NCBI GenBank assembly: GCA_964371425.1
Contig: CAYJMK010000001.1
Location: 2,454-28,302, forward strand
Length of the DNA: 25,849 nucleotides
Direction of reading: 5' to 3'
Origin: an uncultured Candidatus Saccharibacteria bacterium
GTDB taxonomy: Bacteria > Patescibacteriota > JABMPQ01 > JAGQLO01
The translations under genes and the position numbers were made by a program. Within the stretch, counting starts at the first letter, position 1, and each line of letters starts with the position of its first letter. The notes beneath the pieces are model-generated. The model was not told where the DNA came from. It saw nothing but the letters and a program-made list of their open reading frames with translations, and did no database searches. Below are positions 5,676-17,403 of this stretch, piece by piece.

Positions 5676-6107
5676 ATGCCAACGATCCACCAACTCGTGC
5701 GACGCCCCCGTCGGTCGCTTCGCTCTAAGTCTAAGTCACCTGCGCTCATGCGCCGGTTTGATTCGTTGCACAAGAAGCCGAGTGTTCTCCGGAAAGGCTC
5801 TCCCTTCATGCGTGGTGTGTGTGTCCGTGTGACCACCACAACGCCAAAGAAGCCAAACTCTGCTCTCCGAAAGATTGCTCGTGTTCGTTTGACGAACGGC
5901 ATGGAAGTGACGGCTTATATTCCGGGTGAAGGTCACAACTTGCAGGAACACTCTATTGTCACCATCCGTGGTGGCCGTGTGAAAGACTTGCCAGGTGTGC
6001 GTTATCACATTGTCCGTGGTGTGTTGGACACGTCCGGCGTGGATGGTCGCAAACAGGGTCGTTCCCGTTACGGAGCGAAGAAGTCTTCTGGTGCCGGCAA
6101 GAAATAA
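5676..6107 (+). CDS. rpsL: 30S ribosomal protein uS12
   Basis: [22 protein letters not shown] and [13 protein letters not shown] motifs. Confidence 0.99.
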
Positions 6108-6113
6108 TCTCCT

Positions 6114-6584
6114 ATGGCTCGTCGCTCTCGTGCTATCCGTCGTCCAACCGTTGCTGATCCGCGCTTCCACAGCGAGTCTGTTGCACGTCTTATCAACTAC
6201 TTGATGGAAGGTGGCAAGAAGTCTGTTGCCTCCAGTGTCGTCTACGGTGCCATGGATATGGTTGCTGAAAAAACGAAGTCGGAACCGCTCGAAGTGTTCG
6301 ACAAAGCGATGCGGAATGTGGCACCAGCGCTTGAAGTGAAAGGTCGTCGTGTGGGTGGAGCCAACTACCAGGTTCCGTTTGAAGTGAAAGGTCACCGCCG
6401 TACGATGCTAGCCTTCCGTTGGATCTTGGATGCTGCTCGCAGCAAAAAAGGTGCCCCCATGGCAGAGCGTTTAGCGCGTGAATTGGTGGAAGCATCCCGT
6501 GGGGAAGGTGCTGCCATGAAGAAGCGTGAAGACGTTCAGAAGATGGCAGAAGCCAACCGAGCGTTTGCTCACTTCGCTCGCTGA
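6114..6584 (+). CDS. rpsG: 30S ribosomal protein uS7
   Basis: RRVGGANYQVP and KMAEANRAFAHF motifs; directly follows rpsL. Confidence 0.99.
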   Translation: MARRSRAIRRPTVADPRFHSESVARLINYLMEGGKKSVASSVVYGAMDMVAEKTKSEPLEVFDKAMRNVAPALEVKGRRVGGANYQVPFEVKGHRRTMLAFRWILDAARSKKGAPMAERLARELVEASRGEGAAMKKREDVQKMAEANRAFAHFAR

Positions 6585-6603
6585 TTCCATTTGATCTTGG
6601 TGT

Positions 6604-6634
6604 GAACGACGCGCTCTGGCGCGTCGTTCGTTTT
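6604..6634 (+). terminator. Intrinsic terminator after rpsG
   Basis: Perfect 11-bp stem gaacgacgcgc-tctg-gcgcgtcgttc followed by gtttt. Confidence 0.75.
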
Positions 6635-6699
6635 GCGTAGAGTCCGAATCTGTTTTGTGCTATCTTTTCTGTACGCATCACGCATCCAGAAATCAACAC

Positions 6700-8427
6700 A
6701 TGCCTCGTTCGTCTCCTGCCTCTGTCTCTGTATCCCATGCACTCCTTCCGCAAACGGAAGATGTCTTTGTGCAAGCCAAGGGTGGCATCTTAATCTCGCC
6801 TGATCAGCTTGCACACGTTGAGCGAGCCTACACAAAGGCGACGCGTTCGCGTGATCGTCGTGGTCCCGGTTCTCTTGCTGGACAGCGTCATGGTGTGTCA
6901 TGGCGTGTCGGTTTTATTGTATTCGGTGTTCTTTTTATGATCGGATTGGGCGGTGCTGGTTATTACATGCTTCAGCGCACCAAACCGCTTTCTTCATATG
7001 GTTCTCTCTTTCCGCAAAGCGACGACTTGGCGGTATCTTCAAAAAAACCTGAAGTCACGTTAGATGATTATTCTTCTGGTTTGAATGAGTTTTCGCGCAC
7101 CTTCCAGCAGCCTGATGCAGATCGCGATGGAGATGGTCTGACGGAAGAACAAGAAAATGAGCAAGGGACCGACCCTCTCAATGCTGATACCGATGATGAT
7201 GGATATACAGATGGGGAAGAAGTGAAGAATGGCTACCCACCGACAATACCTGCACCCATTGCAAAGTCCATGACAGTAAAAACGAATACTGATGCGGTCT
7301 ATGAACAGACAGAGACAGGACTTTCTTTTCACTATCCTGCAGGAACGAAACTTTCTGCGCCGGTGATTGTGGATGGCGAGATTGCTGAAGGAACCGACGT
7401 TCGTTTTCCTTATTTAAAAGTGTTTGAGATTTCAACGTTGACGGATCCCACCTCACCTTTTGGATTCATTCCGCTCGTATCATGGCAAGAAGCGCGTCAG
7501 CTTTTGGACGCTGTCGATGTTCCTTCGGCATCTTTGTCGACCGTGAAGGCTGTGATTCCGATTTATGGCGATTTTCTGGTTGGGGATGGTGCGAAGCCGG
7601 TGTTTTTAGAAGGTTCTGTCTTTACAGCGGCCTCGCGTGCTCGTGCGTACGAAGGGTATTACACGCTGGATGAGGGTGATCCACAGCCCACGCTTGCTCG
7701 CGTGACAACGTTTATTGAGAACGATCGTTTCTCGTATCAGTTTATTGCGTTCTTCCGTGGGAAAACGATTTCTCCCGCAGATCTTTTAGCGCAGTTACGT
7801 GCGGGTTCTGCTTCTTCGGATCTGCAAGCTGCGTATGATTTGTATGGAACGATCATTGCTTCTGTCGATATTGCGCGTGCGACAAAACCTGTTGCTCCTG
7901 TGGCGGCCACGGTTCCTACTGTTGAACCTTCTCAGCCGTCTTCTCCTTCCTCTATTCCTTCTTCTTCGGTCCTTTCAAGCGCTCAAGAGATTTTCGATAC
8001 GTTTCTTGCGAAACCAGATACAACGTCCTGGCAGAACTTTAAGCCGGCGCGTATGCCTCTTTCCTTCAAGCTTCCTCCTTCTTGGTATTACGCTGACTGT
8101 GGGGCGCGTGTTGGCCTACACTCCTCTTCGGTCAATGACTTCTGTACCGATCAAGATGCATCTCTTGTTATTGAGGTTTCGGATACAGCTCCAGATGTGA
8201 TTGCTGCACAACGTGTCTCTGTTCTCCAAATGCCTGTTTCTTCTTCTGTTGTCTTGTCTGGATTGTCCGCGCAACGTGTTCAAGGAAAAGAGCAAGGGAA
8301 TGATGTTGATTTGGTTGTGTTTGCTCGCGATCGTAAGACCTACGTTTTTTCGTTCACTGGTGCTTCTTCTGACGATCTTGCCCATGTGGATGTTTTTGCG
8401 GGACTTCTTGCCACCCTGCATTTTTAG
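6700..8427 (+). CDS. Single-pass membrane-anchored surface protein with a TSP3-like acidic Ca-binding motif and two PsbP-like segments
   Basis: ATG at 6700 preferred over the tracked 6655; TM VGFIVFGVLFMIGLGGAGYYML; DxDxDGL...GTDPLNADTDDDGYTDGEE; motifs YEQTETGLSFHYP and WQNFKPARMPLSFKLPPSW. Confidence 0.8.
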   Translation: MPRSSPASVSVSHALLPQTEDVFVQAKGGILISPDQLAHVERAYTKATRSRDRRGPGSLAGQRHGVSWRVGFIVFGVLFMIGLGGAGYYMLQRTKPLSSYGSLFPQSDDLAVSSKKPEVTLDDYSSGLNEFSRTFQQPDADRDGDGLTEEQENEQGTDPLNADTDDDGYTDGEEVKNGYPPTIPAPIAKSMTVKTNTDAVYEQTETGLSFHYPAGTKLSAPVIVDGEIAEGTDVRFPYLKVFEISTLTDPTSPFGFIPLVSWQEARQLLDAVDVPSASLSTVKAVIPIYGDFLVGDGAKPVFLEGSVFTAASRARAYEGYYTLDEGDPQPTLARVTTFIENDRFSYQFIAFFRGKTISPADLLAQLRAGSASSDLQAAYDLYGTIIASVDIARATKPVAPVAATVPTVEPSQPSSPSSIPSSSVLSSAQEIFDTFLAKPDTTSWQNFKPARMPLSFKLPPSWYYADCGARVGLHSSSVNDFCTDQDASLVIEVSDTAPDVIAAQRVSVLQMPVSSSVVLSGLSAQRVQGKEQGNDVDLVVFARDRKTYVFSFTGASSDDLAHVDVFAGLLATLHF

Positions 8428-8436
8428 AAGTGTGCG

Positions 8437-10191
8437 ATGAACGAAGATTCCAAACTGTCCCGACATACGTTCTTGTCTGGGCGTTTGGATACGCTTTCTG
8501 GATCGCTCATTGGAGCGTTGTTTACGCTCTTGACCGGTGTGCTCTTGTTTTACGCATGGCGCGCTTGGGATAATCCATCAGAATATGTGAGTACTGCTGC
8601 GCGTACGTCTATTCGTTCTGATGTTGCTTTAGCAGAAACTGTTCCACTGCCTGATCCCGCTGCGGGATGGAAAACGTATCGCAACGAGCACTACGGTTTC
8701 CAGGTGATGATTCCAGCTTATTGGGAGCCGAGTGATGCGGCTGCAACGGCTGAGGCGGTCTCCTTTGATACTCTCGAGCGGCAGGCGATCTTAACGCGTC
8801 TCCCTATTGAAGGATATATCGCTCCTGTCGAGGTTTATGTGTTTGATCGCGATGCATTGACTTTGCAAGCGACGAAAAATCCTGTTCAGTCCACACCACC
8901 GTCGTCTGCGTTTACAGAAGAACGGGATGTGATGATTGGAACGCAATTGTTTCGGCAGATGAAGTATGTCGGTTCTTCTACGCCGGGTGGTGGGCCACGT
9001 TGGTATTACATTCCTGCTGGTCAAAAGACAGAAACACCTCCGTACGCATTCTCCGCTCTTGAAGATGCTCAGTCCGTTTTATTGTCAATGTTGCGTTCGT
9101 TTGAACCGCTTTCCGCTGCAACGGCTTCTTCCACCCTTTTGAAAGCGGCATCGTTTAGGTATCTCAGGTCTTCGGTTGCAGGAGGGTCTGAAGTTGTTGG
9201 AAACGAACTGCGTGGTGCGATCGTTCGTGAGACGGTTCGTGTTCAATTACCTGTGATGAATGAAGCGATTGTTGCGGCCGATATCGATCCGACTCGTACA
9301 AAGCTTTTGTATAGCACTGCGAAGGTTGTACGTATGCGGGAGCTGGATGCTGGAACAGACTCTGTCTTGTTTTCGACGGGGACTGGAGATGCTCCCGATG
9401 GTTCTATTCCGCTGACTTCGCTGCAGTTTTCTCCAGATGGTTCTTTTGTTTCGTTTGTCTTTTCTGATCGTGTGCATACGCGGATCTCTATCATGAATCT
9501 CAAAACACATGCATTTTCTTGGAAGGATATTTCTGTTGGCCAGCCGCTGTTTTTGTGGGTTGATGCTCGACGGTTCTTGTTTGTTTCTGACGCGGGTTTG
9601 TTAACGCTTGCTGATGTTTCGCAAGATGGTATACGTTCTTTTCAATCGGATGTGCTTTCTGATGTAAAGGCGATGGTTCCCTATGCAGTCGCCTTCACAA
9701 CAGATCGGACGCGACTTGCTGTTTTAGCGGTGGGTCCTGCCGCAGCTTCAGAACAGGCATCGGCGGGGACCCGTCATGCCTTCCTGTTCTTGATCGATCC
9801 ACAGCTGGCGGACGTTGGGACGACTCGTTTACTGGAAACGGTAGATCTTGGGTTACCCATCACGGAGGCGGCTGAGCACCCTGCATCGTTTGGGTTGGCT
9901 TTCTCACCGGATGGGCAGCGTATCATTTTATCGGTTGAAGACCGTATTTGGGTTGCGGGTGCGGGTCGGCTCGAGACCTTTCGACCGGATCCATCTGTCA
10001 CACGGCAGGGACGTGTTTTAGGTACCCTGTCTTCTGGTGAATTGCTTATGAACCAATCTGCCCGTAATCCCGCGGGAGATGTGATTGGTGGACGTCTCTT
10101 ACTCCTTGACCCAGAGGGAGAGATACAACGTTTTGCTTCTTCTGTTGGTGCGAGCTCTGTTCTCCTTTCTTCTTTTGTTCTTTCACCTTGA
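8437..10191 (+). CDS. Single-pass membrane-anchored protein with a PsbP-like domain and a C-terminal TolB/WD40-like beta-propeller
   Basis: N-terminal TM; WKTYRNEHYGFQVMIPAYW motif; repeated FSPDG blade-like motifs (LQFSPDGSFV, LAFSPDGQRI). Confidence 0.75.
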   Translation: MNEDSKLSRHTFLSGRLDTLSGSLIGALFTLLTGVLLFYAWRAWDNPSEYVSTAARTSIRSDVALAETVPLPDPAAGWKTYRNEHYGFQVMIPAYWEPSDAAATAEAVSFDTLERQAILTRLPIEGYIAPVEVYVFDRDALTLQATKNPVQSTPPSSAFTEERDVMIGTQLFRQMKYVGSSTPGGGPRWYYIPAGQKTETPPYAFSALEDAQSVLLSMLRSFEPLSAATASSTLLKAASFRYLRSSVAGGSEVVGNELRGAIVRETVRVQLPVMNEAIVAADIDPTRTKLLYSTAKVVRMRELDAGTDSVLFSTGTGDAPDGSIPLTSLQFSPDGSFVSFVFSDRVHTRISIMNLKTHAFSWKDISVGQPLFLWVDARRFLFVSDAGLLTLADVSQDGIRSFQSDVLSDVKAMVPYAVAFTTDRTRLAVLAVGPAAASEQASAGTRHAFLFLIDPQLADVGTTRLLETVDLGLPITEAAEHPASFGLAFSPDGQRIILSVEDRIWVAGAGRLETFRPDPSVTRQGRVLGTLSSGELLMNQSARNPAGDVIGGRLLLLDPEGEIQRFASSVGASSVLLSSFVLSP

Positions 10192-10199
10192 GATCACGT

Positions 10200-10565
10200 A
10201 TGTCTTCTCATGATGCTGCATCTCTTTCGGTCCCAGTCCATTCGAAAAAACGATTCTGGATCCTCCTGGTGTTATTTCTTGTTGTCCTTGGTTACGGTGT
10301 TTTTCTTCAGATACGTGTTCGTCAAATGCAAAAACAACTTGTGCAGGAGGCCTCAAGTTCTGCTTCGCCACTCGGAGTGTGTCAGGCGATGCGTGATCGT
10401 GATGCAACTGAATTGAGCCGTCTGCGGAGAGATGTGACGGAAGCCCGTGATGGACGTATTGCTTCCGAACAAAAGGAAAGTGTGTGTTTGACACAACTTG
10501 GATTAGCACAGCAGCGTGCGGCGGCTGCGTCGCCCTCTTTTTCGACGGCTACGCCGACGCCGTAG
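10200..10565 (+). CDS. Small bitopic membrane protein with a C-terminal coiled coil
   Basis: ATG at 10200 (alternative TTG at 10188 overlaps the previous stop); KKR + TM helix, then Q/R/E-rich helical region. Confidence 0.7.
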   Translation: MSSHDAASLSVPVHSKKRFWILLVLFLVVLGYGVFLQIRVRQMQKQLVQEASSSASPLGVCQAMRDRDATELSRLRRDVTEARDGRIASEQKESVCLTQLGLAQQRAAAASPSFSTATPTP

Positions 10566-10680
10566 GATTGTTCTAGACGATGCTGTGTTTATGGCTTGGT
10601 GATTCTACGTGCGCCTTTTCGTTCTGTCGTATTAGCGATAGGGTTTCTTGGTCTCCGCTTCGTTTTCTTTTTTTCTCTGT

Positions 10681-12321
10681 GTGAAAGCCTCTGATCTCTT
10701 TGCGGCCTGCTTGAAGAACGAAGGTGTTTCGTGGGTGTTTGGCGTGCCCGGCGAAGAGAATTTGGATTTACTCGAGTCGTTGCGAGAGGTGGGCATTCCG
10801 TTTATCACGACACGTCATGAGCAAGGTGCGGGCTTCATGGCTGCCACGGTTGGTCGGTTGACCGGTAAGGCTGGGGTTGCGTTGTCGACGCTTGGTCCTG
10901 GGGCAACAAACTTAGTGACTGCTGCGGCGTATGCACAGTTGGGTGGAATGCCGGCTGTGTTTATCACGGGTCAGAAACCTGTGCGACGCAGCAAACAGGG
11001 CGCGTTTCAGATTGTAGATGCGAGTCATGTGTTGCGACCTGTCACAAAACACACAGAGTCTGTTTCGAGTGGTGATCGGATTCCTGCCTTGGTGCGGAAT
11101 GCGTTTCGGCTTGCGGAAGAAGAGCGGCCTGGTGCCACACATCTGGAATTACCAGAAGATATCGCCGCAGAATCGACGGAGGCCATTCCTTTTTTTGCAG
11201 AAAAAGTTCGGCGGCCTGTGGCGGAAGAAAAGGCTCTACGTTTAGCGTGTGAAATGATTCAAACAGCACGTAAACCATTGTTGTTGGTCGGTGCTGGAGC
11301 GAATCGGAAACGCACAGCGAAGATGCTGCGTGCGTTTATCGATAATACGCACATCCCGTTTTTGACGACGCAAATGGGGAAAGGTGTCTTGGATGAGCGA
11401 GATCCGTTGTATCTTGGGACAGCTGCACTCTCTACTTCTGATTATGTACATTGTGCGGTGGATGCAGCGGATTTAATCATCAATGTTGGACATGATGTTG
11501 TGGAGAAACCGCCGTTTTTGATGCGTCCGGATGGGCCCAAGGTTTTGCACGTGAATTTTTTTCCTGCACAGTTTGATGCCGTGTATTTCCCGCAGCGCGA
11601 AGTGATTGGAGATATTGCGAACGCACTTTGGCAGATCACGGAACAGATCACGGTGTCGAAGGAGTGGGATTTTGCCTATTTCTTGAAAGTCCGAGCGAAA
11701 ATCGCTGAGCGTTTTGCAGGGGTCGATACAGATGACCGGTTTCCCATGTCTCCGCAGCGGCTCGTTGCGGATGTGCGCGCAGCTGTCCCAGACGATGGGA
11801 TTGTTTCGCTCGACAACGGCATGTACAAACTCTGGTTTGCGCGACACTACAAGGCCTATCAGCCAAGTACGCTCTTGTTGGACAACGCGTTAGCTACCAT
11901 GGGTGCTGGGTTGTCTTCGGCTGTGGCTGCAAAGCTGGTTTTCCCGGATCGTCGTGTGGTGGCGGTGTGTGGCGATGGGGGATTCTTGATGGGCGGTCAG
12001 GAATTGGAGACAGCGGTTCGTTTGAAGCTCGATCTCCCAATTCTTGTCTTGAACGATGGTGCGTACGGCATGATTCGTTGGAAGCAGGATGCCATGGGGT
12101 TCCCAGGTCATGCGTTGTCGTTTGGGAATCCGGATTTTGTGAAGTATGCAGAGAGTTTTGGAGCACACGGGCATCGGGCTCAGACGGCTGGTGATGTGAA
12201 GTTGTTCCTTGAACGTGCGTTTGAAGAAGGCGGCATACATCTGATTGATGTTCCTATTGATTACGAAGACAATCGGCATGTGTTGACGAACGAATTGAAA
12301 TATAAGTCGTGTCCCGTTTAG
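10681..12321 (+). CDS. Thiamine-diphosphate enzyme of the acetolactate-synthase-like family; probable 2-oxoacid decarboxylase (OgdA-like)
   Basis: GTG start giving MKASDLF...FGVPGEEN; RHEQ catalytic Glu; LGPGATN; GDGGF-x-ND ThDP/Mg motif; no small regulatory subunit nearby. Confidence 0.88.
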   Translation: MKASDLFAACLKNEGVSWVFGVPGEENLDLLESLREVGIPFITTRHEQGAGFMAATVGRLTGKAGVALSTLGPGATNLVTAAAYAQLGGMPAVFITGQKPVRRSKQGAFQIVDASHVLRPVTKHTESVSSGDRIPALVRNAFRLAEEERPGATHLELPEDIAAESTEAIPFFAEKVRRPVAEEKALRLACEMIQTARKPLLLVGAGANRKRTAKMLRAFIDNTHIPFLTTQMGKGVLDERDPLYLGTAALSTSDYVHCAVDAADLIINVGHDVVEKPPFLMRPDGPKVLHVNFFPAQFDAVYFPQREVIGDIANALWQITEQITVSKEWDFAYFLKVRAKIAERFAGVDTDDRFPMSPQRLVADVRAAVPDDGIVSLDNGMYKLWFARHYKAYQPSTLLLDNALATMGAGLSSAVAAKLVFPDRRVVAVCGDGGFLMGGQELETAVRLKLDLPILVLNDGAYGMIRWKQDAMGFPGHALSFGNPDFVKYAESFGAHGHRAQTAGDVKLFLERAFEEGGIHLIDVPIDYEDNRHVLTNELKYKSCPV

Positions 12322-12339
12322 TGCCTTTTGCATTCTCTT

Positions 12340-13707
12340 ATGGCGATCCAGAGTTGTAATCCAGTGACAGGGGAGACACTTGCTTCGTTTGAGGAGTTCA
12401 CCCATGACGCATTAGAACATGCGCTGCATCAGGCGCATCAAACGTTTCTTATGTGGCGCGCTGTTCCGTTGGAAGATCGGCTGGTGCCGCTCCAGCGTTT
12501 AGCGGTGTTGTTTAAAGAGCGTGCGCCGCAGTTAGGTGCACTGGCCACAGCAGAAATGGGTAAGCCGATCACGCAAGCCATCGCGGAAGTGGAGAAGTGT
12601 GCCACCGCTTGTGAGCACTATGCTGAGCAAGCGGCTACCTATCTTGCTCCGGAAGAAATCGCTTCTGATGCTTCGCGTAGTTATATTCGTTTTGATCCTC
12701 TCGGTGTGGTGTTGGCGGTTATGCCATGGAACTTTCCGTACTGGCAGGCGGTCCGATTTCTCGCACCAGCGCTTGCGGCGGGGAATGTTGGGTTGTTGAA
12801 ACATGCGTCCAACGTGCCGCAGTGTGCAAAGGCACTTGAGCAGATTGTATTAGATGCTGGGTTCCCGAATGGCGCGTTCCAAAATCTGTTTTTGAGTTCT
12901 GCGCGTGTGGAAGGCGTGATTCGTGATCCGCGCGTTGTCGCAGTGACGCTGACGGGAAGTGAACCTGCGGGGAAATCCGTAGCTGCTACCGCAGGCAGTG
13001 AGATCAAGAGAACCGTCTTAGAACTTGGAGGGAGTGATCCGTTTCTGGTGTTTGCGGATGCCGATTTAGCGTTGGCGGCTCAGACGGCGGTGAAGGCTCG
13101 ATTTCAGAACGCGGGTCAAAGTTGTATTGCGGCTAAGCGATTTTTGGTCGAGCAGGCTGTTTACGAACCGTTTCTGGCAGCGTTCGTGAAAGAAACATTA
13201 ATGCTGAAGGTTGGCGATCCAGCTGATCCAGAAACCGCCATGGGTCCGGTTGCTTCTGAGCGGGCTTGTCACGAACTGGAACAGCAGGTTCATGCATCTT
13301 TAGCTCAAGGGGCCCGTCTTGTTTTAGGAGGGACACGGTTACCGCATTTAGGTCCTTCCTTTTTTGCGCCTACCATTTTGGCAGATGTGCCAACAGATGC
13401 TCCTGTTGCGTGTGATGAAACGTTTGGCCCTGTTGCTGCCGTTCTTCCGTTTCAAGACGAAGCCGAAGCGATCGCCTTAGCGAATGCGACGCCGTTTGGA
13501 TTGGGTTCTGTTGTCTTCACGCAACAGAAAGAACGTATTCAACGTCTTGCTGAAGGTCTTGAAGTTGGGTGTGTTTTTGTGAATGGCATGGTCAAATCTG
13601 ACCCGCGGTTGCCGTTTGGTGGGATCAAATGTTCCGGCTATGGCCGTGAACTTTCCAAAGAAGGCATGCGTGCATTTTGCAACATGAAAACGGTTTGGAT
13701 CGCTTAG
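12340..13707 (+). CDS. NAD(P)+-dependent aldehyde dehydrogenase, succinic-semialdehyde dehydrogenase (GabD1/Sad/SsaD-like) subfamily
   Basis: MPWNFP, LKHASNVPQ, TLTGSEPAG, LELGGSDP (catalytic Glu), GQSCIAAKR (catalytic Cys), ETFGP and SDPRLPFGG..SGYGREL motifs. Confidence 0.92.
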   Translation: MAIQSCNPVTGETLASFEEFTHDALEHALHQAHQTFLMWRAVPLEDRLVPLQRLAVLFKERAPQLGALATAEMGKPITQAIAEVEKCATACEHYAEQAATYLAPEEIASDASRSYIRFDPLGVVLAVMPWNFPYWQAVRFLAPALAAGNVGLLKHASNVPQCAKALEQIVLDAGFPNGAFQNLFLSSARVEGVIRDPRVVAVTLTGSEPAGKSVAATAGSEIKRTVLELGGSDPFLVFADADLALAAQTAVKARFQNAGQSCIAAKRFLVEQAVYEPFLAAFVKETLMLKVGDPADPETAMGPVASERACHELEQQVHASLAQGARLVLGGTRLPHLGPSFFAPTILADVPTDAPVACDETFGPVAAVLPFQDEAEAIALANATPFGLGSVVFTQQKERIQRLAEGLEVGCVFVNGMVKSDPRLPFGGIKCSGYGRELSKEGMRAFCNMKTVWIA

Positions 13708-13744
13708 AGCTCGGAATAAAAAAACAACGTCGGTCGTGGCGTCG

Positions 13745-13773
13745 TTGACGCCTTCCCTGACCTTCCGTATGCT
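13745..13773 (+). promoter_or_regulatory. sigma70-type promoter dedicated to fusA
   Basis: TTGACG-17 nt-TATGCT, 72 nt upstream of the fusA ATG. Confidence 0.75.
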
Positions 13774-13845
13774 CCCCGCGCACATCTCTGTGGGCGCGCC
13801 TTTTTCAGATCGGCGCGTCGTCATGCGTTACCAACCGAAATCGTT

Positions 13846-15960
13846 ATGCCTGCTGACTCCACCCTCGAAAAGACCCGCAATATCGGTATTATCGCCCACA
13901 TCGATGCGGGTAAGACGACGGTGACCGAACGCATTCTGTTCTTCACTGGTGTCTCGCATAAAATTGGTGAAGTGCACGAAGGCGACACGGTCATGGACTG
14001 GATGGAGCAGGAACGTGAACGTGGTATTACGATTACCTCCGCTGCAACCACCTGTTTCTGGAAGCCGATGTATGATCCGTCGCTCGGGGACTACCGGATC
14101 AACATCATCGACACACCGGGCCACGTGGACTTCACCGTAGAAGTGGAGCGTTCCTTGCGCGTGTTGGACGGCGCAGTCGTTGTCTTTGATGGAAAAATGG
14201 GTGTTGAGCCGCAATCCGAAACCGTTTGGCGGCAAGCGAACAAATACAACGTGCCGCGGGTCTGCTTCGCTAATAAAATCAACTTAGTGGGTGGATCGCT
14301 GGTCAACACGTTGAAATCGATTCACGAACGTCTCGATCCGAATGCGTTCCTTATTTGGTACCCCTACGGCGAAGGCGAAGAAAACAAAGGCGTCATCGAT
14401 CTGATCACGCGTCAGCTCTACACTTACGAAGGATCTGACGGACGTGAGCTGTCTGCGCCTCAAGATGTGCCTGCAGACTTTACGGATGTAGTGGAAAAAA
14501 CACGAGTTGAGATGATCGATCACATCGCCAACGGTGATGACGAGATCGCGGAGAAATATCTCGAAGGAACTGAATTATCCGTAGAGGAATTACGCGCAGC
14601 GCTGCGTCGTGGTGTCCTTTCTGGGAAATTGCACCCTGTCACTGGAGGAGATGGTCGCAAGGCGGTCATCAAACTTCTCCTTGACCAAGTCATTGCCTAC
14701 TTGCCGAGCCCACAAGACGTGGGTGCGGTGAAAGGAACGGATCCAAAATCAGGCGAAGAGCTTGAACGCAAACCAGAAGATAGCGAACCGTTTTCCGGCT
14801 TGGCTTTTAAGGTCGCTTCTGATCCCTTCGTTGGGAAATTGATTTTCGTGCGTGTCTACTCTGGCGTGTTGAAATCTGGTTCGTATTTGATGAACTCCAC
14901 GAAGCGTGAAAAAGAACGCGTGGGCCGCGTGCTCTTGATGCATGCGAACAAACGCGAAGAATGTGACGAAGTGCACGCGGGGAACATTGCCGCGGTGGTT
15001 GGTCTGAAGAGCACCACTACCGGTGACACGCTTTGTGATATCGACAAACCCATCATTCTTGAGCAGATCACCTTTCCAGAGCCGGTCATTTCTGTCGCCA
15101 TTGAACCCAAGACAAAAGCAGATCAAGAAAAATTAGGAAATGCTTTGAAGGCGATGGTCGAAGAAGATCCGACCTTCCGTGTTCGTACAGATCACGAAAC
15201 GATGCAGACCGTCATTTCTGGCATGGGGGAACTTCATCTCGAAATTATTGTCGACCGCATGAAGCGCGAGTACGGCGTTGAAGCCAACGTTGGTGCGCCT
15301 CAAGTGGCGTACAAAGAAACGATTCGTGGCACGGTGGAGGCCGAAGGGAAGTTCATCAAGCAGACCGGTGGTCGTGGTCAGTATGGCCACGTCTGGCTCA
15401 AGCTTGAGCCGTTGGAAGCGGGTAAGGGCTATGAATTTGCGAACGAAATTAAAGGCGGTTCTATTCCACAGGAATACATCAGCCCTGTCGACAAAGGTGT
15501 TCAAGAAGCGCTCGCAGGTGGTGTGATTGCTGGTTTCCCCGTGCTCGACGTGAAGGTGACCCTCTTCGACGGATCCTTCCACGATGTCGACTCCTCTGAA
15601 GCGGCGTTCAAGATTGCTGGTTCGATGGCGCTTAAAGAAGGTGTCCGGAAAGCGAACCCGGTTCTGCTTGAACCTCTGATGAAGGTTGAAGTCTTCACTC
15701 CGGAGAAATCCATGGGTGATGTGATTGGGGACCTCAATGCACGGCGCGGAACGATTGAAGAAATGTCAGACCAGAGCGGCGTGAAACTGGTAAAAGCCAA
15801 AGTACCGCTCGCGGCTATGTTTGGGTACGCCACACAGTTGCGCTCGCTTTCTCAGGGTCGTGCAAACTACGCCATGGAATTCGCAAACTACCAGGAAGTT
15901 CCTCGTAACGTTGCAGAAGAAATCATCGCGAAGCGATCAGGGATCTCTCGCCGCGGGTAA
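13846..15960 (+). CDS. fusA: Elongation factor G with non-canonical G4 and G5 motifs
   Basis: 704 aa; G1 [10 protein letters not shown]2 RGITI, G3 [24 protein letters not shown] and HDVDSSE all present; G4 reads NKIN and G5 reads GGDGRK. Confidence 0.98.
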
Positions 15961-15984
15961 AAAAAGGCCCAGCTTGAGCTGGGC
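15959..15984 (-). terminator. Intrinsic terminator for the minus-strand unit converging on fusA
   Basis: gcccagct/agctgggc inverted repeat (15967-15984) preceded on + by an A7 run, which is a U-tract on the minus strand. Confidence 0.7.
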
Positions 15985-16004
15985 AACGAAACGGATGCGT
16001 GGGG

Positions 16005-16027
16005 CGCCGATCCTCAGAGGATCGGCG
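16005..16027. repeat. Perfect 11-bp inverted repeat
   Basis: cgccgatcctc-a-gaggatcggcg; the stop codon of the minus-strand small ORF sits at its apex. Confidence 0.85.
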
Positions 16028-16253
16028 GATTGTTCCTGTGCGCGGTTGACCCGATGCCTTCCATGTCGGCGCGACTGAAGTCCGGGTGCTGACCGATCGC
16101 TTCAGGTGCCATCGCCGGCTCGGTCGGCCTTGTCACAGCCGTAGCTGCACGGCGCATGGCGATGCGCTCTGCACGCGCCATCGCGTACACTGTCTGGTCT
16201 AGTGCACTTCTGACGTTGATCAGACCTTTTCCCGGAATATGAACGAACGGCAT
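16014..16253 (-). CDS. Putative 79-aa small protein (MPFVHIPGKGLINVRSALDQ...); the transcript could instead be an sRNA
   Basis: GGAGG 4 nt before the ATG; flanked by its own promoter and terminator; no family recognised. Confidence 0.45.
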   Translation of the reverse strand: MPFVHIPGKGLINVRSALDQTVYAMARAERIAMRRAATAVTRPTEPAMAPEAIGQHPDFSRADMEGIGSTAHRNNPPIL

Positions 16254-16322
16254 GTCTCCTCCCATGAGAATGTACAGGGCCGGCACGTGTCGGCCGCGAA
16301 TGATCCATCACAGATGCAGGCG

Positions 16323-16350
16323 AGTCTATCTTCCGTGTTGTTCGTGTCAA
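16323..16350 (-). promoter_or_regulatory. sigma70-type promoter of the antisense unit
   Basis: Minus strand TTGACA-16 nt-TAGACT. Confidence 0.65.
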
Positions 16351-16412
16351 GCAGCAGAAGGTGCGATACACTCCGCAGTGTAAAAGAACAGCAAGATAAG
16401 AAATAACAGCCT

Positions 16413-17300
16413 ATGACTCCATCTGCCTTCTCTCCATCTCAGAGTCCAGCTTCCGTCACTCCTCCCATTGCTCCGTCTAAGAAAAAAAACACCCTTCTTT
16501 TCTGGATCGTCCTGTCCTCCTGCACCATTATTGGACTCCTTGTCGCGCTCGTTTTGTTCTTGTTGTTCCGTGGTCCGGCTCAGTCTCTGACGGCTGCGGA
16601 TTTGGCTGCTGTTGATCTGTCTGCATTGCCTTCCGAGGATATTTCATCACAAGACTCGGAACCTGCTGTTACAGACACAACAACAGACGCGGATACCGTT
16701 GTTTCTCCTCCTCAAAAGACGACGACCACTCCTGCGCATGCACGTTTTCAAAGTAAACTTCTTCCGTTTTCATTCGTTCCTCCCAAAGCGTGTGCTGCTG
16801 TTCCGCAGGAAGCACTGTTCACATCTGCTTCTGATGAAAATATCGTGCGTGGAACATCCTACAATGCGGTTCTGATGTCTGTTGGAGAAATTGCTGCGCA
16901 GAATTGTCCCATGGTGATTGGCAGCATGTCCGCGAATTTTTACTCAAAGATCGCACGGGGTGGGACGCCGCTTGATTTGATTGGATTTGAATATCGAAAA
17001 GCTCAGGACGAACTCTTCCTTCCTGTTTGGTGGGCAAAAGAGGATGTTTCTGGTTACACCATGAAACAAGTGAAAGCGATTAAAACTCTGACGGGCGAGA
17101 CTGCGTACACAGCACAAGCTCCAAGTGTCTTTGATGCGGAGAGTGGTGTTGATATTGTCGGTGTTGTGGCCTTGCCTGCAGGCACTTCTCCTTCTGTTCT
17201 TCTCTTCTATGCAGGTACTGAGCAGGGTCAAGCAGGTGCGATGCGTGAAGCGATTGAGTCTCTTGTTGCCAGCGTGAAAATCCAGTCGGAAAAGGAATAG
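16413..17300 (+). CDS. Single-pass membrane-anchored surface protein with a T/S/D linker and a PsbP-like C-terminal domain
   Basis: KKKN + TM helix; low-complexity linker; RFQSKLLPFSFVPP motif; C-terminal ESLVASVKI ending typical of PsbP-like folds. Confidence 0.75.
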   Translation: MTPSAFSPSQSPASVTPPIAPSKKKNTLLFWIVLSSCTIIGLLVALVLFLLFRGPAQSLTAADLAAVDLSALPSEDISSQDSEPAVTDTTTDADTVVSPPQKTTTTPAHARFQSKLLPFSFVPPKACAAVPQEALFTSASDENIVRGTSYNAVLMSVGEIAAQNCPMVIGSMSANFYSKIARGGTPLDLIGFEYRKAQDELFLPVWWAKEDVSGYTMKQVKAIKTLTGETAYTAQAPSVFDAESGVDIVGVVALPAGTSPSVLLFYAGTEQGQAGAMREAIESLVASVKIQSEKE

Positions 17301-17325
17301 AGGAATACCCCCGAGATGGGGGGCC

Positions 17326-17353
17326 TTGCGTGCTTCAAAAAGATTGCTATAGT
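17326..17353 (+). promoter_or_regulatory. Promoter of tuf-rpsJ (extended -10)
   Basis: TTGCGT-16 nt-TATAGT with a TGn extension. Confidence 0.65.
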
Positions 17354-17403
17354 AGCTAAGACGTTTGTGCAAACATTTTCTTCGTTTGTTTTGATCTATT
17401 CCT

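Follow-up and report, generated by a model that had tools for sequence, protein, structure and literature searches.

A candidate 2-oxoacid decarboxylase and semialdehyde dehydrogenase gene pair inserted in the str ribosomal locus of a CPR genome

The closest described counterparts of the gene pair reported here are the cyanobacterial OgdA/SsaD systems, which include SynPCC7002_A2770/A2771, Sll1981 and Microcystis MaKGD (PMC5160925, PMC10418658, PMC7510979). The ogdA-ssaD operon of Synechococcus 7002 functions in vivo in the conversion of 2-oxoglutarate to succinate (PMC5160925). In the succinic-semialdehyde dehydrogenase (SSADH) of this organism, Cys262 and Glu228 are catalytic, Trp135, Arg139 and Ser419 contact the substrate carboxylate, and Lys154 and Ser157 are the NADP+ determinants (PMC7510979). 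Residues for 2-oxoglutarate and ThDP binding have been reported for the assayed Microcystis KGD (MaKGD); its substrate contacts, including two lysines, were proposed from docking on a model (PMC10418658).

Two other groups are relevant for comparison. Modules in Pseudomonadota, Bacteroidota, Planctomycetota, Myxococcota and others combine a ThDP enzyme of the NF006187 type with an aldehyde dehydrogenase (ALDH) that resembles lactaldehyde dehydrogenase or GapN. These are annotated as ‘acetolactate synthase large subunit’ and ‘aldehyde dehydrogenase family protein’. AlsS and AHAS (IlvB/IlvI/IlvG) share the three-domain ThDP fold and the cofactor motifs with the enzyme described below. Nothing that combines CPR or Patescibacteria with these enzymes was found in the literature.

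The pair lies in a 25,849-nucleotide stretch of DNA (the window), in which the following features are arranged in the same orientation.

6655..10565, + strand: family-specific insertion between rpsG and fusA, with a 590-aa TSP3-repeat protein, a 584-aa protein and a 125-aa ORF
10681..12321, + strand: ThDP-dependent 2-oxoacid decarboxylase candidate, 546 aa, of the NF006187/PRK08322 family, core N-x-M-Y-K clade
12322..12339, + strand: intergenic spacer of 18 nt, sequence read directly, consistent with co-transcription
12340..13707, + strand: NADP+-type succinic-semialdehyde dehydrogenase candidate of the GabD1/SsaD type, 455 aa, Pfam Aldedh, full length
13846..15960, + strand: fusA (EF-G), TIGR00484 1064.6 bits, immediately 3′ of the pair

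The ThDP reading frame has a GTG start and begins M-K-A-S-D-L-F as in its homologues, and the ALDH frame has an ATG start and encodes an Aldedh protein of full length. Since the stop codon of the first gene ends at 12321 and the ATG of the second is at 12340, the spacer is 18 nt. A promoter/terminator scan of the window, whose site counts were not above chance, revealed no terminator-like site between the two genes. A promoter-like site is present at 13745-13773, but such sites are no more numerous than chance predicts. An earlier note on this DNA had described an ALS-like ThDP gene 18 nt upstream of a GabD1/Sad-type ALDH, and coordinates and domains confirm this arrangement. The gene order and tight linkage are like those of the cyanobacterial systems. 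The best-supported reading, to which we assign a probability of about 0.6, is that the pair forms a co-transcribed two-step route, independent of CoA and lipoate, that most probably converts 2-oxoglutarate to succinate and yields NADPH.

The three ORFs of the insertion have homologues in identical order in a sister genome (G090) that does not carry the ThDP-ALDH pair. In genomes of the same order and in a Uhrbacteria genome, rpsL, rpsG and fusA are contiguous. The pair has been added behind the insertion and ahead of fusA. Both genes arrived together by horizontal transfer, and the pair is rare in CPR (7/401 genomes). As a rare transferred unit it is unlike the cyanobacterial systems, and it is an example of such a module transferred into the str ribosomal locus. 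The possibility that linkage of the pair to CPR genes is a binning or assembly artefact was rejected because contig continuity is seen in two studies: a single Logan contig from run X1 covers 10077-14015, and separate contigs from the second study bridge each junction (10440-10735, 10560-10800 and 13391-13882).

Assignment of the host genome to CPR, already suspected in the earlier note, holds. Among EF-Tu neighbours at 80-84% identity, every named one belongs to Candidatus Doudnabacteria, Moranbacteria, Parcubacteria or Patescibacteria. The assembly, 87% complete, measures 886 kb (0.89 Mb), and no ribosomal protein L30 was found in it; genomes in the phylum sample range from 0.5 to 2.1 Mb.

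Members of the ThDP decarboxylase/carboligase superfamily were recognized by three domains, a catalytic Glu for N1′ of ThDP, and a GDG...(N/D) diphosphate-Mg motif. The first enzyme of the pair carries the Pfam domains TPP_enzyme_N, TPP_enzyme_M and TPP_enzyme_C, together with E47, G431-D432-G433-G434 and D459. Its NF006187 score is 828.8 bits (cut-off 509), and the alignment takes in positions 3-546 of the 548 in the model. The name of this family, ‘acetolactate synthase large subunit’, is also the database label of the protein, where it is most likely a mislabel. Scores fall below the curated cut-offs of the AlsS models (NF006378, 435.6 bits versus 510; TIGR02418, 399 versus 551) and of the IlvB model (TIGR00118, 344 bits versus 538), and ancestral AlsS structures match with 340 bits. 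The active-site signature comprises E47, K383, G431-D432-G433, D459, Y462 and K468. In contrast, the positions of K383 and K468 are occupied by Tyr and Gln in AlsS and by Gln and Trp in AHAS, and in bona fide IlvB proteins of CPR the equivalent residues are Q383, N459 and W468. By the curated cut-offs, the enzyme is thus neither AlsS nor IlvB, in line with the earlier note.

We compared the enzyme with MaKGD at E50, Q254, V382, A384, H385, K386, A408, M410, G434-G437, D462, Y465, L467, K471 and Y531. Twelve of these 17 reported residues are identical at a constant offset of -3 (E47, K383, A405, M407, GDGG, D459, Y462, K468 and Y528), including both lysines proposed for the distal carboxylate of 2-oxoglutarate (K386 to K383, K471 to K468). 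The five differences are Q254 to S251, V382 to N379, A384 to M381, H385 to Y382, and L467 to M464. These five positions are invariant within the clade of the CPR enzyme, which has the signature S251, N379, M/V381, Y382 and M464. The MaKGD motif (V-x-A-H-K) is found in sister clades whose proteins also fall in NF006187 but are only 35-46% identical to the CPR enzyme; in the tree, OgdA is represented only by motif-bearing stand-ins. The N-x-M-Y-K clade is the dominant one in NF006187, and the literature that we found apparently contains no assayed member of it; production of the cyanobacterial enzymes required co-expressed chaperones. Since the CPR enzyme belongs to a sister clade of the one with the assayed motif, its substrate, most probably 2-oxoglutarate, is an inference, as are aldehyde release by the clade and the physiological role of the pair.

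The best PDB matches of the second enzyme are 3vz1 and 4it9, both the Synechococcus 7002 SSADH, with 466 bits and a near-gapless alignment, which places it in the same subfamily as the cyanobacterial ALDH. Its best NCBIfam match is NF006915, at 587.7 bits, yet this is under the cut-off of 730. Conserved residues are W130, N131, W135, R139, K154, S157, E228, C262 and S420, where numbering from the ATG equals that of Synechococcus 7002 up to a 1-residue insertion. All catalytic, succinic-semialdehyde-contact and NADP+ residues reported for the Synechococcus enzyme are kept. The motif K154-H-A-S157 is present, with the serine that the earlier note had associated with NADP+ preference, and the SSADH-like character proposed there is supported. 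An operon with an SsaD-type ALDH, as in OgdA/KGD systems, is therefore found here.

Comparison with the modules of other phyla gives a different pattern. Their ThDP enzymes form one clade with the CPR enzyme, share 57-63% identity with it and have the same 18-position active-site signature, and an ALDH likewise lies directly 3′ in the same orientation. However, their ALDHs are only 26-34% identical to that of the CPR pair, and at positions 130, 131, 135 and 139 they carry F, N, N and H. Judged from the sequences, the second enzyme seems to have undergone non-orthologous replacement. Partners in most other phyla come from a different subfamily without R139 and W135; the usual partner lies closest to the dehydrogenases of lactaldehyde, sulfoacetaldehyde and phosphonoacetaldehyde, and in every case scores under their cut-offs.

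The association of the two enzymes is widespread. The ThDP gene is followed directly by an ALDH gene at about 55/80 loci from many phyla (about 80-85 loci were examined) and in 6/6 other CPR genomes that have the ThDP family. Natural ThDP-ALDH fusions exist as single ORFs of 1016 and 1019 aa. A tally of 105 flanking ORFs gave no conserved third gene. The constant ALDH partner and the fusions add to the evidence that the very large NF006187 family may consist of aldehyde-releasing decarboxylases.

Several observations link the pair to glutamate. Glutamate dehydrogenase (GDH) is encoded on another contig of the same genome. GDH is present in 7/7 CPR genomes with the pair versus 183/401 overall, a co-occurrence that rests on ∼6 independent genera. 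Elsewhere, a GDH gene adjoins the pair in five proteobacterial loci, and Glu_synthase-family genes are neighbors in four loci and on a Leisingera plasmid. In the proposed route, GDH would convert glutamate to 2-oxoglutarate. From an anionic 2-oxoacid, which is most probably 2-oxoglutarate, the ThDP enzyme would split off CO2 to give succinic semialdehyde, which the ALDH would then oxidize to succinate with reduction of NADP+. The route would supply NAD(P)H to an organism whose genome yielded neither G6PDH nor any other oxidative pentose-phosphate enzyme.

An inventory of TCA, PDH, PFOR and ilv genes agrees with the earlier note's expectation that a TCA cycle is probably lacking. IDH, citrate synthase, SDH and SCS were not found in the genome, nor were PFOR and OGDH/PDH E1. 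The absence of ilvH, ilvC and ilvD claimed for the window extends to the genome, where no full ilv pathway, small subunit or alsD (AAL_decarboxy match) was found. These absences are provisional because the genome is 87% complete. A GABA shunt was considered as the source of succinic semialdehyde and rejected because no GABA aminotransferase (class-III aminotransferase) was found in the genome.

Because the genome is without a TCA cycle, the pair would be a stand-alone linear route rather than the oxoacid bypass that had been proposed. The decarboxylase/ALDH part of that proposal is supported, but there is no cycle to bypass, and with GDH the route would lead linearly from glutamate to succinate. 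In this the CPR host differs from cyanobacteria, in which the route closes the cycle. A pathway of this type is already described for cyanobacteria; what is new here is only the host and the sub-branch of the enzyme. Through the pair, a minimal organism that has no TCA cycle could rid itself of glutamate carbon and obtain NADPH with no need for CoA, lipoate or the oxidative pentose-phosphate pathway, a route that is open to testing.

The strongest competing explanation, although we consider it rather unlikely, is that the same decarboxylase-then-ALDH logic applies to another anionic 2-oxoacid. Candidates are oxaloacetate (via malonate semialdehyde to malonate), 2-oxoadipate (via glutarate semialdehyde to glutarate), and hydroxy-, sulfo- or phosphono-pyruvate. 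The five active-site positions that differ from the assayed Microcystis enzyme and do not vary within the clade are consistent with this explanation, as is the affinity of the usual partner ALDHs elsewhere to dehydrogenases of other aldehydes; an acidic substrate of any kind would fit the basic pocket residues K383, K/R466 and K468. However, the residues with which the crystallized SSADH binds succinic semialdehyde are all unchanged in the CPR ALDH. Moreover, GDH is a source of 2-oxoglutarate in the genome, where a source of the other acids was not identified, and the recurring metabolic neighbors elsewhere are glutamate/2-oxoglutarate enzymes. A broader form of this idea is that the N-x-(M/V)-Y-K clade, which spans many phyla, some archaea and CPR and almost always has an ALDH next to it or fused, could decarboxylate a different central anionic 2-oxoacid. 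We regard this as doubtful; if true, a widespread two-step pathway would be hidden under the ‘acetolactate synthase’ label.

The earlier note had left the choice between 2-oxoglutarate to succinate and pyruvate to acetate undecided. Pyruvate decarboxylase followed by acetaldehyde dehydrogenase would provide an oxidative outlet for pyruvate, which has no evident one since neither PFOR nor PDH E1 was found. Nevertheless, this scheme is improbable. R139, W135 and S419 of the ALDH correspond to residues that hold the carboxylate of succinic semialdehyde (PMC7510979), which argues against acetaldehyde as its substrate. In addition, assayed relatives of the ThDP enzyme released no aldehyde from pyruvate (PMC10418658), and the enzyme has two or three basic residues in its pocket. 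The conversion of 2-oxoglutarate to succinate is thus the favored alternative. Least likely of all is that the ThDP enzyme is a true acetolactate synthase, or a carboligase of another kind, with an unrelated ALDH as neighbor: the NF006187 name, the rank of AlsS as next-best model (436 bits) and the best PDB relative (13bb, deposited as ‘acetolactate synthase’) point in this direction, but the scores short of the cut-offs for IlvB and the two AlsS models, the failure to find alsD, ilvH, ilvC and ilvD in the genome, K rather than the AHAS Trp or AlsS Gln at position 468, and the ALDH pairing conserved across phyla, with natural fusions, all argue against it.

Relatives of the ThDP enzyme were also sought by plasmid tblastn with two queries, cluster look-ups, a motif-representative profile search and the ESM Atlas. 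No named cyanobacterial protein was among the matches. The same searches recovered relatives in Methanoperedens, Methanolobus, Methanomethylovorans, Woesearchaeota and haloarchaea, and some of the haloarchaeal relatives adjoin an annotated SSADH.

Both the str and the S10 ribosomal loci lie within the window, and the pair formed by a ThDP enzyme (546 aa) and an aldehyde dehydrogenase (ALDH, 455 aa) belongs to the following gene order (window positions).

5676-6107, rpsL, first in the order
6114-6584, rpsG, after rpsL
6655-8427, +, TSP3-repeat protein of 590 aa
8437-10191, +, protein of 584 aa
10188-10565, +, ORF of 125 aa
10681-12321, +, ThDP enzyme gene, GTG start at 10681
12340-13707, +, ALDH gene, ATG start at 12340
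13846-15960, +, fusA, directly after the pair
16413-17300, ORF of 295 aa between fusA and tuf
After the 295-aa ORF, tuf, rpsJ, rplC and onward to rplE

The ThDP stop codon is separated from the ALDH ATG by 18 nt. The N terminus of the ThDP enzyme is M-K-A-S-D-L-F, its homologues begin likewise, and the G+C content of the region is flat (0.51-0.52). Both junctions are bridged by independently assembled contigs from public runs of two studies. The named neighbors of EF-Tu (Candidatus Doudnabacteria, Moranbacteria, Parcubacteria and Patescibacteria) are all CPR groups, so the genome is CPR, which bears out the origin that the earlier note had considered probable.

Three ThDP-enzyme domains are found in the ThDP enzyme. 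Its score on NF006187/PRK08322 is 828.8 bits (cut-off 509), and it falls under the cut-offs for AlsS (435.6 vs 510 and 399 vs 551 bits) and biosynthetic ALS (344 vs 538 bits). Judged from its sequence, it shares its NCBIfam family with proteins bearing the Microcystis KGD motif, and it is neither an AHAS nor an AlsS. The genes of genuine CPR IlvB proteins lie beside ilvD in same-order genomes; these proteins carry Q383, N459 and W468, whereas the ThDP enzyme has K383, D459 and K468.

Strict specificity for 2-oxoglutarate is reported for the Microcystis KGD, and 17 of its residues are given as contacting cofactor or substrate (PMC10418658). With a constant offset of -3 to the numbering of the ThDP enzyme, 12 of the 17 are identical (E47, K383, A405, M407, G431-D432-G433-G434, D459, Y462, K468 and Y528), whereas five are changed (Microcystis KGD to ThDP enzyme: Q254 to S251, V382 to N379, A384 to M381, H385 to Y382 and L467 to M464). 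In an alignment of ∼190 relatives, the signature of the ThDP enzyme is invariant through a large clade of proteins 57%-69% identical to it, and it is in sister clades (35%-46% identical) that the V-x-A-H-K...L motif of Microcystis KGD is found. FastTree splits this core clade (N-x-(M/V)-Y-K; local support 100%) from the sister clades, although core and sister groups alike exceed the NF006187 cut-off; CPR members are scattered in the tree. We know of no member of the enzyme's own branch with a measured activity. The closest solved structure, PDB 13bb_A (512 bits), was deposited simply as 'acetolactate synthase'; its motif, N-x-I-H-M, is a third variant, and K at 468 is kept.

The top NCBIfam match of the ALDH is NF006915, the GabD1-type NADP+ succinic semialdehyde dehydrogenase (SSADH), at 587.7 bits and under the cut-off of 730. 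Its best solved relatives, 3vz1 and 4it9 (Synechococcus PCC 7002 SSADH), align nearly without gaps at 466 bits. Numbered from the ATG, the ALDH keeps W130, N131, W135, R139, K154, S157, E228, C262 and S420 (=S419). In SSADH, C262 and E228 carry out catalysis, W135, R139 and S419 contact the carboxylate of succinic semialdehyde, and K154 and S157 confer NADP+ preference (PMC7510979). With K154 and S157 both kept, the earlier note was correct in linking the 'KHAS' Ser to NADP+.

Across many phyla, an ALDH gene lies directly downstream from the ThDP gene in ∼55 of 80 loci (57%-63% identity), and most remaining loci are truncated contigs. A tally of neighbors across the compared loci found no other conserved gene around the pair. 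The usual partner elsewhere differs from the window's ALDH in being of another, lactaldehyde-DH/GapN-like subfamily (26%-34% identical), and the ThDP active-site signature is constant regardless of ALDH type. Two representative proteins (1016 and 1019 aa) are natural fusions, each a single ORF joining an NF006187-type ThDP enzyme to a type-A ALDH: P0123 (L121:3001-6051), on a 128-kb contig, and P0128 (L122:1849-4908 and L123:813-3872), beside a eukaryote-type RRP12 gene. These comparisons speak for an aldehyde as the product of the ThDP enzyme, and we place high confidence (∼0.85) in a decarboxylase-plus-ALDH route for the pair.

The RRP12/HEAT gene adjoining P0128 makes its contig look eukaryotic. 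Other relatives of the ThDP enzyme carry a C-terminal cyclic-nucleotide-binding domain (P0141, 677 aa) or an N-terminal NAD-dependent epimerase/dehydratase domain (P0212, 907 aa). On solvent-tolerance plasmids of Pseudomonas sp. VLB120 (pSTY 36947-38590, locus L082) and P. putida S12, a same-clade enzyme (60% identical) occurs without an ALDH; its gene has an FAD-dependent monooxygenase gene on one side and the srp solvent-efflux genes on the other.

Most likely, the pair converts 2-oxoglutarate to succinate. Glutamate dehydrogenase (GDH) would supply 2-oxoglutarate, the ThDP enzyme would convert it to succinic semialdehyde, and the ALDH would oxidize this to succinate with reduction of NADP+. 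Because the active-site motif of the core clade is distinct, 2-oxoglutarate itself is favored as substrate with only moderate confidence. The OgdA/SsaD pair of Synechococcus 7002, to which the earlier note had likened these genes, runs the same kind of two-step route (PMC5160925). Unlike it, the route here would be linear, catabolic or NADPH-yielding, since there is no cycle to close.

A GDH gene (418 aa) is present on contig C9 of the window's genome; every best NCBIfam match is a glutamate dehydrogenase, each under its cut-off. GDH occurs in 183 of 401 sampled genomes and in all seven that carry the pair, and this co-occurrence over ∼6 independent genera is no more than suggestive of a link to glutamate/2-oxoglutarate. 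In five alphaproteobacterial loci a GDH gene lies ≤1.5 kb upstream of the pair, and Glu_synthase-family genes flank it at four loci and also on a plasmid of Leisingera. GDH matches in a dozen CPR genomes (G041:C4:163547-164236, for example, and G068, G281, G223, G396, G370, G284, G138, G265, G288, G173 and G092) contain one in-frame TAA or TAG, and those of two genomes contain TGA plus TAA; these stops could reflect a match running past the gene end, a pseudogene or recoding.

The inventory of TCA, PDH, PFOR and ilv genes proposed earlier covered the genome (886 kb, 87% complete), with controls behaving as expected, and none of the genes sought was found: ilvC, ilvD, ilvH, alsD, PFOR, 2-oxoacid dehydrogenase E1, isocitrate dehydrogenase, citrate synthase, SDH/FRD flavoprotein, succinyl-CoA synthetase, class-III aminotransferase or G6PDH. 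Three same-order genomes (G220, G250 and G205; loci L092, L095 and L098) encode a genuine IlvB-type AHAS, with W at the acceptor position, adjoining a gene that resembles dihydroxy-acid dehydratase; the order therefore has part of the branched-chain amino-acid pathway, but the window's genome does not. In the same-family genome G090, adjacent Ligase_CoA and C-terminal citrate-synthase matches (G090:C2:21373-22540) may represent a citryl-CoA or ATP-citrate-lyase-like gene; in the window's genome, Ligase_CoA gives just a weak match, at the end of a contig (C12:385-564).

Only seven of the 401 sampled genomes of the phylum have an NF006187 member above cut-off. In all six besides the window's, an ALDH gene lies directly downstream, five of the six ALDHs being GabD1/SsaD type (45%-53% identity), as is that of a Candidatus Uhrbacteria locus (57%). 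When CPR loci are ranked by identity to the window, the order is the same for both genes, which fits a pair inherited or transferred as a unit.

In same-order genomes, as in that of the Uhrbacteria, rpsL-rpsG-fusA are contiguous. In G090 the order is rpsG, two large proteins, a small ORF, ∼1 kb, fusA and tuf, with no ThDP or ALDH gene anywhere in that genome. We therefore take the pair for a lineage-specific insertion; its loss from G090 is less likely. The 295-aa ORF has no family match and does not occur in G090. Within 6585-17403, the str operon is split after rpsG by the 590-aa and 584-aa proteins, both probably secreted, and the 125-aa ORF; this insertion is absent from same-order genomes and is common to the Doudnabacteria-like G090 (L120, G090:C43:11000-28000).
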